Below, in pieces: positions 24,557-29,051 of a stretch of DNA of 64,000 bases. The notes beneath the pieces are model-generated. The model was not told the DNA's origin. It searched no databases and worked only from the letters and a program-made list of their open reading frames with translations. The position numbers and the translations under genes were made by a program. The DNA comes from a bacterium (GTDB taxonomy: Bacteria > Patescibacteriota > Patescibacteriia > Patescibacteriales > UBA12465), in NCBI GenBank assembly GCA_030696105.1, contig JAUYNJ010000001.1:134903-198902 (forward strand), read 5' to 3'. Every line of letters begins with the position of its first letter. Position 1 is the stretch's first letter.

Positions 24557-25222
24557 ATGAAAAAGTTCGTTAAAAATCTGATCAGCATTTTTATGCTGTT
24601 ATTATTTTGGCTGATTGGCTGGTGGTTGTTTCGAGTAAGAAATAAAACTACCATTATCGGCCTTGAGAATCTTCCCAAACAAACAGGCTTACTGCTCCTG
24701 TCTAACCATCAAAGTTTGGTTGACTCGATGCTCATTGGTTACGCCCTGTTTGATCCTCATGAAATTCTGAGTCGCTACCGCCAAATTCCTTGGAATGCGG
24801 CCGCCTGGGAAAACTTTTTTCATAAAAAAGTATTTCTGCGCACATTCTGTTATTTTTTGAAAACAATCCCTGCTTACCGTCAACTCGGAGCTGAGTTAGC
24901 TAATCAAAATATTCGGGAGTACGACGAAATCCTTAAGCATGGCAATTTACTTTTGTTCTTTGAAGGCACACGCAGTCGCAACGGTGATATTGGTCCCTGT
25001 GCCTATGGCCCAGCGAAAATCATCGCCATGCGTCAACCAACAACCATCCCCATTAAAATTGAGGGAATGGACAAGGTAATGCCTATCAGTGCTGGTTTTA
25101 AATGGCATCACATTAAGGGTGGCAAAAAGATTACAATCAAAGTCGGCAAACCGATGGAGTTTCAATCTTTAACCCTTGATGACATTCGCCAAACTGTACT
25201 GAGTAGTGTAAAAAATCTCTAG
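24557..25222 (+). CDS. Lysophospholipid acyltransferase (PlsC family)
   Basis: GLENLP, SNHQSLVD (HX4D), FFEGTRS. Confidence 0.9.
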   Translation: MKKFVKNLISIFMLLLFWLIGWWLFRVRNKTTIIGLENLPKQTGLLLLSNHQSLVDSMLIGYALFDPHEILSRYRQIPWNAAAWENFFHKKVFLRTFCYFLKTIPAYRQLGAELANQNIREYDEILKHGNLLLFFEGTRSRNGDIGPCAYGPAKIIAMRQPTTIPIKIEGMDKVMPISAGFKWHHIKGGKKITIKVGKPMEFQSLTLDDIRQTVLSSVKNL

Positions 25223-25310
25223 CCCGTTTACTCTTGTAGCGGGCTTTTTGATAATTGAAAAGGCCTCGAAGAATATTTTTCGAGGCCTCGCTTTATTTTT
25301 TTGTGTGGGT

Positions 25311-25763
25311 TTATTTGGTAACCCGCACTTGAATTGGCTTAAAGCGGATAAACATGTCCGTTGTGCCAGGAATCAGCATTTCAGGCTCACCTGTTGGTGA
25401 AAAAGTTTTAAGTTCCGATTCCGGTCTAACTTTTTTGTCACCTGTTTTATAAATGTCTATCACCATCCGCACTGCCCCGGTTGTCTCGTTTTTTGAAGTT
25501 AAAACTACAACTTTATCGGCGGTGAAGGTTTCACCGGCATAAGTATAGTCAATATAGTAGTTCTTTGTTACTATAATTTTTTTATACCTGTCGCCTCGGC
25601 GGATATGCTTGGGCACGTTAATTGTCTTACCGTCCGCGTCGATGAACGTGTGGGCATCCATAATTGTAAAAAATTCATCCGTTGGTGGTGGACATGTTAC
25701 TTTCACATTAAACATGGTTGTTAATGTTTCGTAGCGTGGTCCGGTGTTTGTTTTCGTTTCCAT
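25311..25763 (-). CDS. Hypothetical protein (150 aa), unit 1 of the accessory array
   Basis: ORF bounded by its own promoter (25905-25877) and a hairpin at about 25261-25289. Confidence 0.75.
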   Translation of the reverse strand: METKTNTGPRYETLTTMFNVKVTCPPPTDEFFTIMDAHTFIDADGKTINVPKHIRRGDRYKKIIVTKNYYIDYTYAGETFTADKVVVLTSKNETTGAVRMVIDIYKTGDKKVRPESELKTFSPTGEPEMLIPGTTDMFIRFKPIQVRVTK

Positions 25764-25795
25764 TTGCTGTTTTTTTTGTTTGGTTTGATGATTAA

Positions 25796-25845
25796 TTGGA
25801 TTGATTGCTAAACCTACGAATTCATAGGCTTGGCAATCAATCCAA
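25796..25845. repeat. Imperfect inverted repeat in the leader (copy 1)
   Basis: TTGGATTGATTGC...GCAATCAATCCAA, a 50-nt hairpin homologous to 26755-26810 and 27394-27448. Confidence 0.8.
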
Positions 25846-25855
25846 GAAACAGCAT

Positions 25856-25905
25856 TTGTAAATGAACCAACCGTTTATAATATCATATAATTGAAATATT
25901 GTCAA
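25856..25905 (-). promoter_or_regulatory. Promoter plus boxA-like motif
   Basis: TTGACA(25905-25900)-17-TGA-TATTAT(25882-25877); GGTTCATTTACAA(25868-25856). Confidence 0.7.
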
Positions 25906-25934
25906 TGTTTGGCTTTTGATACTATTATTACAAT

Positions 25935-26192
25935 AAAAAAGAGGGTTAATTACTTAACCCCCGTAACTCAGAACTCATTGAACTGCTTTCGAGGTTATTT
26001 CACTCTATTCGCTCCTTCGATCAACAGGGACGGTATTTAACATTTAGACTCCGCTAAAGCTGGCGCATTAGCTTCACAGTCTCCCGTCTATTCTACACAT
26101 TGTTAATCTATCTTTAAGCCAACATACGGGAGTCGGACCCGCGGACATCAATTTGATGTTTGTGCCCCTTGCACTATATTGTTTCTGAATTA
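25935..26192 (-). ncRNA. Candidate structured ncRNA with a tRNA-like 5' domain
   Basis: Promoter TTGACA(26227-26222)-17-TAATAT; closing helix AATTCAGAA/TTCTGAGTT; D-like and T-like arms; terminator GGGTTAAG-TAA-TTAACCC-TCTTTTTT; no ORF of 60 aa or more. Confidence 0.55.
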
Positions 26193-26339
26193 ATTAAAAT
26201 ATTATACAGATATTTGTTGTTTGTCAATAAAAAAGACCCAAATTTCTTCAGGCCTTATGGTGTTTCATATCTCTCGCCTATTTGTGAACCGAGACTCATT
26301 TTCAACGTTTCTATGAATTTGCATCACAGGCCTTTTAGG

Positions 26340-26732
26340 TTAGCGGATTGCCGTGAATTTTTCGAGTATATCTTCGAATTTTTCCGGCATTCTTATGCTT
26401 TGTCTGGCAATAGACTCGGATAATCCAGCTTCTATTAAGTCTTGCGCGGACAGTGATGAGTAAACCAACACCTTAAGAGACGAACTTATTTTCTGAAGTA
26501 TCTTAATAAGATGTATTCCAGATTCGTAGCCGCGATTTATTGTCGGCTTAGGGTGGTTTAATAAACTTAGAGGAACAAAGGGGTCAATAATCAAAAAATC
26601 AATTTGCTCGATGTTTTCCAATATTTCCTGTTCGTGTTGAAAAAACAGAACATTAAAACCCTTCCACTTCAGCTGTTCGCCAATACACTGCCTTATAGAC
26701 AGTGAGTCGATTATAATTACCACATTTTTCAT
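26340..26732 (-). CDS. Stand-alone response-regulator receiver-like protein, unit 2
   Basis: MKNVVIIIDS...IDFLIIDP...SGIHLIKIL...KVLVYSS receiver pattern; start at ATG 26732. Confidence 0.7.
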   Translation of the reverse strand: MKNVVIIIDSLSIRQCIGEQLKWKGFNVLFFQHEQEILENIEQIDFLIIDPFVPLSLLNHPKPTINRGYESGIHLIKILQKISSSLKVLVYSSLSAQDLIEAGLSESIARQSIRMPEKFEDILEKFTAIR

Positions 26733-26754
26733 GACTCCGTTTTTTTTGTTTAAC

Positions 26755-26810
26755 AATCGGGTTAATTGTTAAAGTCACTAATCATAGAAACCTTAATAAT
26801 TAACCTGATT
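26755..26810. repeat. Imperfect inverted repeat in the leader (copy 2)
   Basis: AATCGGGTTAATTGTTAA...TTAATAATTAACCTGATT. Confidence 0.8.
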
Positions 26811-26816
26811 ACTGTT

Positions 26817-26874
26817 TGTAAAGGAGCGAGTATATATAACAAAATATTATGTAAAACAAATACTATTTTGTCAA
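26817..26874 (-). promoter_or_regulatory. Promoter plus boxA-like motif
   Basis: TTGACA(26874-26869)-17-CATAAT(26851-26846); GCTCCTTTACA(26827-26817). Confidence 0.65.
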
Positions 26875-27075
26875 TCACTTTGTCCTATTTAACCTGGTAG
26901 GCTTAATTTTGTGTTGGTATATGTAATAAATGCGCGTCTTCGGCTCGTCTTTGTTAAACAGGTTCGTTAAACGTAAGTCTTGGCAAACCTTTTTATTGGA
27001 GTATTTAGTTAAATAAAAAACTACCTCAACCTTAATGGTATATTGGTAGTAATTAATTGCTTCATGCCTTAGAGG

Positions 27076-27369
27076 CTACACTCTCACGTAATTCATAGGT
27101 TGAGAATATCCAACACCACCGCCTTCGGACGCCCATTTTACCCACAACACAGGTTCTCCCTCAGTAAATTCCATAGGTGCGACACCTTGAACCTCACCAA
27201 TGCCCTCCATGTTGGGGTGTGTAACTTTCATCCCATGTTTGGCGGGAATCACTTTTCCATCCTTATTAGGGATTAAAAAATGCTTGCAAGCCGCGTTTGA
27301 GATGTCAACCACAAATGCGTGATCCGTGTGCGCGGTAACCTTAATTTTATTAACACTTTTTTTAGGCAT
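27076..27369 (-). CDS. Hypothetical protein (97 aa), unit 3
   Basis: Start ATG 27369 preceded by AGGAGG; own promoter. Confidence 0.7.
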   Translation of the reverse strand: MPKKSVNKIKVTAHTDHAFVVDISNAACKHFLIPNKDGKVIPAKHGMKVTHPNMEGIGEVQGVAPMEFTEGEPVLWVKWASEGGGVGYSQPMNYVRV

Positions 27370-27393
27370 GTACCCTCCTTTTTTAGTGTAAAC

Positions 27394-27448
27394 AATCAGA
27401 TTAATTATTAAATCTACTATTTCAATAAAATTGACAACTAACCTCATT
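27394..27448. repeat. Imperfect inverted repeat in the leader (copy 3)
   Basis: AATCAGATTAATTATTAA...TTGACAACTAACCTCATT; aligns with copies 1 and 2. Confidence 0.7.
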
Positions 27449-27455
27449 ATTACTC

Positions 27456-27507
27456 TTAAATGAACCGCTTAACCGAAAATAATAATGTATAACTACAGTT
27501 GTGTCAA
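27456..27507 (-). promoter_or_regulatory. Promoter plus boxA-like motif
   Basis: TTGACA(27507-27502)-17-TATTAT(27484-27479); GGTTCATTTAA(27466-27456). Confidence 0.65.
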
Positions 27508-27675
27508 ACTGCCGTCCACCCTACACTTATAAATAATAATCCAGTTGAGGCTGGATTTTCTTATTACAGGAGGGGGCTACTCTTAAAAGTTGGATAGCTT
27601 TTTTGATGAATTATTTGGTGAAATTATAAAGGCCTTTGATATGATCTCTGGCCAAATATATAAATTTTTATCCTT

Positions 27676-27951
27676 TTAAAAAAAGGGTGTTAATAAATCT
27701 TTAGTCAAAACAAGCCCTATGACCAAAGTTACTAAGCTCGCAACCTGAATAATTACTGCACCTATTTGAATTTTGATTAGCATATCAGAAATTCTCCATC
27801 CCTTATCCCTGTCTCTGCCGTGAAGCCACCCAAATGCGTGGTAATTGACAAATAACATGCAAATCATATTAATCAGCATGCCAAATACAATAAGGCCTAA
27901 ATAGAATATAGGCAGAGAAACTAATTCTCTAAAAAATTCTACACTTTCCAT
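27676..27951 (-). CDS. Small membrane protein (91 aa, 2 TM), unit 4
   Basis: Two hydrophobic helices; promoter TTGACA(28024-28019)-17-TGA-TATATT; AGTTCATTAAAA motif. Confidence 0.7.
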   Translation of the reverse strand: MESVEFFRELVSLPIFYLGLIVFGMLINMICMLFVNYHAFGWLHGRDRDKGWRISDMLIKIQIGAVIIQVASLVTLVIGLVLTKDLLTPFF

Positions 27952-28114
27952 GATTCTTGTTTTTTAAGGTTAGTATTTTAATGAACTATGCCTTTAATAT
28001 ATCACGTTTATTATATTTTGTCAATTAGCTTGGCCCTAGGGATTATTTGATAAATTAATACAAAAAAAGACCCTTGATGTTATCGCGGGTCTTGCGTTGT
28101 TTTAACTAACGTCA

Positions 28115-28685: not shown

Positions 28686-28698
28686 ATTCACTACTAGG

Positions 28699-28770
28699 GG
28701 TGCCTATCGGGAATCGAACCCGAAATAACAGGACCACAACCTGCTGTGTTACCACTACACCATAGGCACC
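28699..28770 (-). tRNA. tRNA-His(GTG)
   Basis: G-1 GTGCCTA...GCAGG-TTGTGGT-CCTGT...GGTTCGATTCC...TAGGCAC-C. Confidence 0.95.
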
Positions 28771-28805: not shown

Positions 28806-28949
28806 TTATTCAGCGTCTCCGCAATGGTGTTCGCAGCGACTGCAGTCACAACTAAAATCCATTGAAAACATGTTTTCAATTTCTTCTCTTGTCTTCTTTT
28901 CGCTTACTGGCTTTACAGCAGCCTTAGCCTTAACAGTTTTCTTTTCCAT
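28806..28949 (-). CDS. 47-aa small protein with a C-terminal CxCxxCxxxC motif (below the ORF-track cutoff)
   Basis: MEKKTVKAKAAVKPVSEKKTREEIENMFSMDFSCDCSRCEHHCGDAE*; fills the gap between two tRNAs, AT-rich leader. Confidence 0.65.
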   Translation of the reverse strand: MEKKTVKAKAAVKPVSEKKTREEIENMFSMDFSCDCSRCEHHCGDAE

Positions 28950-28979
28950 ATATAATTGAATTAATGAATTAATTAAACG

Positions 28980-29051
28980 TACGCCCAGTAGGAATCGAAC
29001 CTACGTAACCAGCTTAGAAGGCTGGTGTTCTATCCATTGAACTATGGGCGC
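28980..29051 (-). tRNA. tRNA-Arg(TCT)
   Basis: GCGCCCA...CCAGC-CTTCTAA-GCTGG...GGTTCGATTCC...TGGGCGT-A. Confidence 0.95.

Follow-up and report, generated by a model that had tools for sequence, protein, structure and literature searches.

A covarying RNA hairpin in a predicted promoter–leader module of accessory genes in one family of candidate phyla radiation bacteria

A repeat found in the leaders of three unrelated genes of a Patescibacteriota bacterium is a covarying RNA hairpin that, as judged from comparison of many copies, is conserved under selection in 5′ leaders. The three genes lie within a stretch of 64,000 nucleotides (nt) of assembly GCA_030696105.1 (contig JAUYNJ010000001.1, positions 134,903 to 198,902; G000:C9:134903-198902 in our own numbering), which we call the window; the host genome comprises 844 kb in 9 contigs with 42% G+C. 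Alignment of leaders from related genomes indicates that the hairpin is one part of a portable promoter–leader module that heads many unrelated small accessory genes, with the hairpin or without it. Next to nothing is known about gene regulation in bacteria of the candidate phyla radiation, which cannot be grown alone.

Results

A hairpin conserved in 5′ leaders

The initial annotation of the window had described three homologous imperfect inverted repeats, each between a boxA-like word and an ATG. All three are present as claimed (Table 1), and the placement is upheld when they are read on the minus strand, which carries the genes concerned. None of the other inverted repeats in the window, 24 in all, is as long as copies 1 and 2, whose arms measure 25 nt (88% complementary) and 26 nt (81% complementary), respectively. 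Copy 3 is missing from this list of DNA inverted repeats because many of its pairs are G.U. Folding of its minus strand yielded −16.6 kcal/mol (z −5.05, with none of 200 shuffles as good) and folding of its plus strand −2.6 kcal/mol (z −0.79).

A covariance model built from the three window copies (R1) matched eight places in the host genome. The five places beyond the window trio had E values of 2.9e-9 to 4e-3, which excludes AT-rich chance as the source of the similarity. A second model, built from 37 copies (R2), added a ninth place (C8:4798-4888), and all nine host-genome copies share one layout.

We aligned copies from related genomes with MAFFT, first 37 and then 65, each oriented by its gene. 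RNAalifold on the 37 copies returned one 23-pair stem with a single interruption: 13 pairs, one position that is either C.A or U-A, 10 pairs and a variable apex. Across the 65 copies the stem is 95.5% paired, with compensatory double changes at 19 of the 23 pairs. The whole structure is 90.8% paired compared with 80.9% in shuffles, none of which (0 of 500) reached the observed value, and sliding the partners by one to three columns left only 26–50% paired; the 37-copy set gave the same covariation picture. About three quarters of copies also carry a 7-bp basal extension (AAGGTTA with TAATCTT) that is 75.2% paired across the 65 copies and shows double changes at six of its seven pairs. The initial annotation had remarked that differences between the window copies are mostly transitions that keep the dyad; changes between copies are largely compensatory.

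The length of the stem is fixed, with almost no insertions or deletions inside it, and length variation is confined to the apex, where about eight copies hold a 15-nt G+C-rich insertion. These insertions are similar mini-hairpins (CCG.C.GC.GGCGG) in an otherwise unaltered stem (L005:382, L165, L173, L181, L187, L189 and L193). Some 17 of the stem pairs hardly vary in sequence, and two of them, U20-A86 and U25-A81, occur in 65 of 65 copies. Non-canonical positions are kept as well: column 33/73 is C.A in 20 and U-A in 14 of the 37 copies, G36.U70 is retained in 54 of 65 and U41.G65 in 50 of 65.

To which strand the fold belongs can be read from the wobble pairs. In gene-sense orientation the 37-copy alignment has 115 G.U or U.G cells against 19 A.C cells, which assigns the selected fold to the sense strand. 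This excess and the position of the hairpin jointly point to mRNA as the molecule that carries the fold, although an excess of G.T alone would also suit a hairpin in one single strand of DNA. A terminator was rejected as a reading of the stem: an A-run, not a U-run, follows it on the sense strand, and the T-run of the other strand precedes it. A conserved upstream open reading frame (ORF) in the loop was rejected too, as the short ATG and TTG frames differ between copies.

Searches of the window against Rfam 15 gave no match at gathering score. With the cut-off relaxed to E ≤ 5, positions 25200–28100 matched only hairpins of microRNA precursors, all below threshold (19–25 bits against cut-offs of 47–120), and among the papers found, as judged from titles and abstracts, none describes the element. 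A novel cis-acting RNA hairpin had been one of three suggestions in the initial annotation, and it is this one that is supported: the hairpin covaries, its mRNA strand is rich in G.U relative to A.C, it always stands between promoter and start codon, and Rfam has no match to it.

A promoter–leader module

The copies lie in a module that has one order: a sigma-70 promoter, a boxA-like word, the hairpin, an A-rich tract and the ATG. Across copies the promoter has the pattern TTGACA-N16-18-TATAAT, with N17 in the three window copies. About 10 nt separate it from a word like GTTCATTTACAAA, which occupies about +5 to +20, follows the pattern G[TCA][TA]C[ACGT]TT[TA]A[CA]AA and in most copies is 1–2 nt away from where the extended stem begins. 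The word is close to the boxA words in the 16S and 23S leaders of the same genome, TGAACTTTGACAATTT and TTGCTCGTTAACACTT. The A-rich tract of 20–30 nt, often AATCTTAAAAAA, leads to the start codon, which lies 6–33 nt from the hairpin; in copy 1 basal pairing extends to 3 nt from the ATG. The median length of the 5′ untranslated region (UTR) is about 110 nt.

This layout is specific to one strand. A promoter was found upstream of the hairpin in 61 of 65 copies (33/37 in the first set and 28/28 in the second) and an ORF start just downstream in 64 of 65 (36/37 and 28/28), compared with 3/37 and 4/37, respectively, for the opposite strand of the first set. Homology is limited to a stretch that begins at the −35 box and stops shortly ahead of the ATG, with unrelated genes behind it, and the conserved unit is thus the promoter–leader module. 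One promoter subtype, TTGACAAATATTGACTG.TATGCTATAAT, heads eight different proteins in eight genomes, in each case with box and hairpin.

The boxA-like word also occurs in many leaders that have no hairpin, one of them in the window (Table 1) and others elsewhere in the genome. A homologue of gene 3 from another genus (37% identity) keeps GTTCATTT and ATTGTTTA...AAAAAAGGAG without the approximately 58 nt between them, so that box and A-rich tract are present and the hairpin is absent. From these hairpin-less leaders and this clean gap we conclude that the hairpin is an optional block, cleanly inserted into a leader type of broader occurrence. Box and hairpin are both missing from the leader of the sole orthologue found for gene 2 (55% identity). 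The hairpin-led genes are patchy: orthologues of genes 2 and 3 each turned up in a single one of 60 other family genomes.

Words resembling a Shine–Dalgarno (SD) sequence are scarce in hairpin leaders (8 of 64) as well as genome-wide (3.8% of 714 crude ORF starts). A makes up 54% of the 25 nt that precede the ATG in hairpin leaders and 40% of those that precede ORF starts genome-wide. Translation start in the host genome seems, from these counts, to be largely SD-independent.

A promoter subtype has an operator-like palindrome over −35 to −10 (AAAAGTATACC...GGTATACTTTT). We found it at five sites in the host genome (G000:C9:707-760, C5:99653, C5:100347, C2:2062 and C1:398) and in relatives (L036, L171, L172, L174, L178, L186 and L196), where it lies directly 3′ of tRNA-Ser genes of four anticodons or of tRNA-Ser-like fragments.

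Table 1 Features of the three hairpin-led units and their surroundings, in window coordinates
Feature	Position	Strand	Remarks
Hairpin copy 1	25796..25845	-	Leader of the 150-aa gene; -31.5 kcal/mol, z -9.95; R1 73 bits
boxA-like word GTTCATTTACAAA, copy 1	25855..25867	-	Set against the boxA words in the 16S and 23S leaders of the same genome
Copy 1 promoter, sigma-70 type	25877..25905	-	TTGACA, 17 nt, TATTAT
Gene 1, 150 aa	25311..25763	-	ATG at 25763; no Pfam family; homologues in two other genomes also hairpin-led
Hairpin copy 2	26755..26810	-	Leader of a receiver-domain-like gene; -21.3 kcal/mol, z -5.74; R1 73.4 bits
boxA-like word GCTCCTTTACAAA, copy 2	26815..26827	-	
Copy 2 promoter	26846..26874	-	TTGACA, 17 nt, CATAAT
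Gene 2, 130 aa	26340..26732	-	ATG at 26732; weak Response_reg match, 21 bits, under cut-off
Hairpin copy 3	27394..27448	-	G.U-rich; R1 69.6 bits
boxA-like word GTTCATTTAAGAG, copy 3	27453..27465	-	
Copy 3 promoter	27479..27507	-	TTGACA, 17 nt, TATTAT
Gene 3, 97 aa	27076..27369	-	ATG at 27369; no Pfam family
Hairpin-less leader of the same type	27949..28024	-	Promoter, GTTCATTAAAATA, AACCTTAAAAAA, ATG of a 91-aa membrane gene
tRNA-His gene	28697..28769	-	Island begins directly past the tRNA 3′ end

Distribution among genomes

The motif is nearly restricted to one family. R1 matched all 15 genomes of the same genus, 6 of 21 from other genera of the family and none of 24 from other families. R2 matched 112 of 148 family genomes, covering 12 of 16 genera, at several places per genome and with more than 500 matches overall; in a sample of the order outside the family it matched 2 of 132 genomes, both with multiple copies. 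Genomes carry the motif at 1–10 places. Motif-bearing relatives are labelled Candidatus Falkowbacteria or 'Patescibacteria group'. Among the 80 loci listed from a pattern scan, about 17 are motif-bearing (R1, E ≤ 0.001; best strand at or above about 38 bits), and four more gave weaker or partial R1 matches of 28.6–32.9 bits.

Full-length matches were also present on short contigs of ten assemblies labelled 'uncultured Gammaproteobacteria bacterium' (L049, L052, L064, L067, L076, L079, L098, L108, L113 and L116). For those contigs the label is probably wrong.

Genes behind the hairpin

The proteins encoded behind the hairpin are unrelated and small, and many are predicted to be exported or membrane-bound. 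The 36 downstream proteins of the first copy set fell into 33 clusters, and the median length of the products is 161 amino acids (aa). Pfam searches with eight hairpin-led genes of the host genome returned one match over the cut-off, to a receiver domain, and one weak match, again to a receiver. A crude hydrophobicity test found an N-terminal hydrophobic segment in 39 of 64 hairpin-led proteins, compared with 31% among 437 small ORFs taken as background.

Cassette islands beside tRNA genes

For seven of the nine host-genome copies, a tRNA gene of the same strand lies 0.1–3 kb upstream; these copies belong to four islands that follow tRNA-His, tRNA-Asn, tRNA-Ser and tRNA-Tyr, and an eighth copy stands behind a fragment resembling the 3′ end of tRNA-Ser. 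The island of the window extends for about 3.4 kb past tRNA-His and consists of five single-gene units and one non-coding unit. Around it, a Pfam scan of the ORFs at window positions 13–36 kb found housekeeping genes only and no integrase, and the sole match to the tyrosine recombinase family PF00589 in the genome is on contig C1.

Relatives show the same association. A tRNA gene lies within 1.5 kb upstream on the same strand in 17 of 59 loci, when about 4% would be expected from the density of tRNA genes; one further locus has a tRNA gene elsewhere and four further loci have a tRNA fragment only. Copies often form co-oriented tandem arrays, and in one genome of the same genus an array after tRNA-His has repeated blocks that end like tRNA-His. 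The association with tRNA genes has exceptions: in one genome from a different family (L211 6221-9957; G274:C3), four hairpin-led genes stand in tandem with no tRNA gene or recombinase near them. The products of this array are 231–267 aa long and have no Pfam matches, and it is located between pheS and uvrC, followed by two ORFans.

At C9:158-767 (−) in the host genome, a single-gene unit comprises promoter, box, hairpin, a gene for a 123-aa receiver-only protein and a terminator, and is flanked by a 27-nt direct repeat, TTCCAACTACGTCCCACCCTCTCCGCA, the end of which resembles the 3′ end of tRNA-Ser. By its outline this unit looks like a cassette inserted by site-specific recombination. Wherever cassette edges are visible, in two arrays, they are direct repeats resembling tRNA 3′ ends and lie about 100 nt away from the hairpin. 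Orthologues can also lack the hairpin, and what travels is the promoter–leader module as a whole.

The non-coding unit of the window island (25935-26194 (−), about 260 nt, free of ORFs) lies between hairpin units 2 and 1. Its promoter has TTGACA at 26222-26227 and TATAAT at 26201-26206, and its terminator ends the unit at 25935-25960. This island non-coding RNA (ncRNA) is 71–80% identical in five genomes of five other genera; in same-genus genomes we found at most a 40-nt piece, in one genome. In three compared loci it is located beside hairpin copies and near tRNA-His. It contains a hairpin resembling a tRNA T-arm (GGTYCGAHTCC), and RNAalifold predicted 64 pairs, 16 of them with compensatory changes; Rfam gave no match. 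An invariant helix of the ncRNA, GAUUAAUAA/UUAUUAAUC, resembles the core of the leader hairpin. Upstream of the island, a 47-codon ORF (28806-28949 (−)) with a Cys/His-rich end (..FSCDCSRCEHHCGD..) lies between tRNA-Arg (28979-29051) and tRNA-His, and is found in the same place in a same-genus genome (L161, ~1150-1245).

Discussion

A predicted RNase III site

We tentatively favour a reading in which the stem is predicted to be bound or cut by RNase III, an event that would adjust how stable the mRNA is and how well it is translated. What recommends it is the fixed stem of about two turns, its weak centre, the presence of a single double-stranded RNA (dsRNA)-binding domain in the genome, the adjacency of rnc and nusB, the likeness of the box to boxA and the precedent of the cspA leader. 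The stem has 24 rungs, or about two helical turns, is 95.5% paired and has weak pairs (C.A, A-U, A-U and G.U) at its centre; as a rule, RNase III substrates have about two turns (20 bp or more) of dsRNA with a weak site at the centre. RNase III is encoded by one ORF (G000:C9:123634-124263) with matches to PF14622 (133 bits) and PF00035 (59 bits). No other dsrm domain was found in the genome, and nusB adjoins the RNase III gene (rnc and nusB together, G000:C9:123634-124973 (−)). In rRNA operons, boxA is followed by a stem that RNase III processes. A PF07497 search of this genome, for which marker genes indicate 100% completeness, did not find Rho.

The mechanism would run as follows. The transcript would fold into the predicted hairpin; RNase III, possibly with NusB and S10 at the box, would bind or cleave near the weak centre of the stem; and the processed leader would gain a different half-life and different access for ribosomes, as in the cspA leader of Staphylococcus aureus. 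There, RNase III cuts a hairpin in the 113-nt 5′ UTR, by which the mRNA is stabilized and its translation raised (PMC3386247).

Several points weigh against an RNase III site. About 17 near-invariant pairs would better suit a sequence-specific partner, given that the enzyme has little sequence specificity, and RNase III is near-universal, so that its presence does not discriminate between readings. At least two gene families can dispense with the hairpin, as their orthologues lack it. With regard to the alignments, structure-aware collection of copies inflates the percentages of pairing and leaves the compensatory changes unaffected; because model-based collection favours paired sequences, it is these changes and not the percentages that carry weight. 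Finally, 3 of the 37 copies scored better on the strand opposite the gene and were turned according to gene context.

The 16S (C6) and 23S (C9) rRNA genes of the host are unlinked, each equipped with a promoter and a boxA word of its own. Behind the 16S gene come the partner of a processing stem and an intrinsic terminator, and the 23S gene appears to hold insertions. The idea that the leader hairpin mimics the 16S processing stem was rejected, since the sequence of that stem differs. We also dropped the possibility that box and 5′ arm are rivals for pairing with the 3′ arm: with only 9 of 13 positions paired, the box would form a far weaker duplex than the stem does.

Alternative readings

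The hairpin could instead be the tag of a post-transcriptional regulon, in which a sequence-specific RNA-binding protein, or an RNA, would co-regulate the tagged accessory genes by reading the invariant lower and middle stem (G-N-UUAAUU...YAAG / UUUA...AAUUAA-N-C, with the fixed G.U and C.A). Next to pairs that covary freely, sequence is indeed kept far beyond the needs of pairing; wobble pairs hold set positions, and the apex varies freely and tolerates the 15-nt insertion. Enrichment before exported or membrane proteins (39/64 compared with 31% of 437) would fit such a regulon, and so would the near-identical helix in the island ncRNA; that helix, however, is 9 bp long in an AT-rich genome and may be a matter of chance. 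No candidate protein was found in the genome, where RNase III has the only dsRNA-binding domain, and sequence-specific reading of a regular A-form helix is uncommon. We consider a regulon tag of this kind unlikely.

A passive role for the stem is less probable again. It would protect the 5′ end and insulate the A-rich, SD-poor tract from upstream sequence, giving newly acquired genes an expression independent of context. This agrees with the rarity of SD-like words in hairpin leaders and genome-wide, with the 54% A before the ATG, with a module that heads unrelated genes, and with a hairpin that comes and goes as a clean indel of about 58 nt, box and A-rich tract remaining adjacent in space. 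Such a stem would not need its fixed sequence, length and wobble positions, and about 20 single-stranded nt precede it, so that it is not at the very 5′ end.

Promoter, boxA-like word and hairpin follow one another in the same order as in the lambda nut site, which raises a reading in which the box loads NusB and S10, the hairpin acts as boxB and polymerase becomes resistant to termination through a co-oriented array. The resemblance of the box to the rRNA boxA words of the genome, the encoded NusB, the distance of 1–2 nt between box and extended stem, the frequent co-oriented tandem arrays and the operator-like palindrome of several promoters would all be in keeping with it. The stem, however, has 23–30 bp and a loop that varies in sequence and length, whereas boxB, which an N-type protein reads, has about 5 bp and a fixed loop. 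Every unit holds one gene between a promoter and a terminator of its own; the PF07497 search did not find Rho; and the box is present in many hairpin-less leaders, showing that box and hairpin are separable. We consider this explanation improbable.

Similarly improbable is a composite in which a miniature rRNA leader, made of boxA with Nus factors and an RNase III stem, marks shuffled accessory cassettes as a lineage-specific regulon with which the island ncRNA competes. If it were true, the GAUUAAU helix of this conserved ncRNA would compete for the same factor, and a bacterium of the candidate phyla radiation would have a post-transcriptional regulon for surface and accessory genes.

The initial annotation had also considered an operator or a recombination site travelling with the cassettes, and had noted a likeness in size to integron attC sites. 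A DNA-level element of some sort (an insertion resembling a miniature inverted-repeat transposable element, a folded attC-like site or a repressor operator) is very improbable. The hairpin is indeed present or absent as one discrete block when orthologous leaders are compared, its copies occur in cassette-like arrays close to tRNA genes, the occurrence outside the family is patchy but multi-copy (2/132 genomes), and the G.T excess also suits a hairpin in a single DNA strand. Yet 65 of 65 copies have one orientation and place relative to the gene, unlike random insertions, and no target-site duplication was seen at the borders of the indel. The doubt that the annotation itself expressed about attC was right: no cores of the form RYYYAAC...GTTRRRY were found in the three copies on either strand (nearest GTTAATT, GTTAAAG and GTTAGTT), and no integrase is nearby, the sole tyrosine recombinase being on C1. 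As to a site that travels with cassettes, the cassette-like arrays stand, whereas the edges are tRNA-3′-like repeats about 100 nt from the hairpin and an orthologue can lack the hairpin. An operator is not supported either, as the upper stem covaries and the apex varies in length, neither of which an operator of two half-sites would need.

Significance

This is a well-supported structured RNA motif with hundreds of copies and clear covariation. It is nearly confined to a single family and associated with the portion of these genomes that changes most rapidly, namely small exported or membrane ORFans in cassette arrays beside tRNA genes. The module of 150 nt, with three separable parts and two candidate factors that could be produced as recombinant proteins, offers a testable handle on the expression of newly acquired genes in organisms that have few SD sites and in which Rho was not found. 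The motif is also a candidate for a new Rfam family and a marker for accessory islands.

Comparison with known systems

RNase III processes the leaders of Escherichia coli rnc and pnp and the R sites of phage T7. The closest likeness is to leaders of the S. aureus cspA type, which share a leader of about 110 nt and a long irregular stem of at least two turns upstream of the ribosome-binding region; the RNase III enzyme is encoded in the host genome here too. What differs is that one hairpin of conserved sequence heads dozens of unrelated genes here and is coupled to a boxA-like word, and that cleavage is only predicted.

A lambda nut site or rrn leader combines boxA with a boxB hairpin. Our module resembles it in having a promoter-proximal boxA-like word beside a hairpin, in an encoded NusB and in the same type of word in the 16S and 23S leaders. 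It departs from it in the 23–30 bp stem with a variable loop, in the single-gene units and in the lack of a Rho match (PF07497), and from lambda nut also in that no N-like factor is known here. NusB and NusE bind to boxA (PMC2800207).

Integron attC sites are likewise imperfect inverted repeats of about 55–60 nt between small co-oriented genes, with strand-specific features. An attC site stands at the 3′ end of a cassette without a promoter and marks the boundary of that cassette, and the array lies beside an integrase gene with attI and Pc. In the present case there are no R''/R' cores, no IntI or attI, and each gene has its own promoter; the repeat is inside the 5′ UTR and the cassette edges are elsewhere. 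Short palindromic repeats are also known as the Correia elements of Neisseria and as repetitive extragenic palindromic (REP) sequences and bacterial interspersed mosaic elements (BIME), which are transcribed and in some cases contain promoters or RNase III sites. Unlike these, the hairpin is low in copy number, with 1–10 places per genome, in fixed orientation and position relative to a gene, and no terminal repeats with target duplications were seen.

Phage 'morons' are autonomous units of promoter, gene and terminator. Reused or mobile promoters (PMC3575422) are homologous promoter regions before non-homologous genes. Our units share with both the homologous promoter before non-homologous genes and the autonomous build; in contrast to both, the reused unit includes a covarying RNA leader and is family-wide in a lineage of the candidate phyla radiation. 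A cis-acting leader hairpin on a reused promoter is thus a kind of element already known. New here are a family-wide structured module, the pairing of its hairpin with a boxA-like word, and its tie to cassette islands in a lineage of the candidate phyla radiation.

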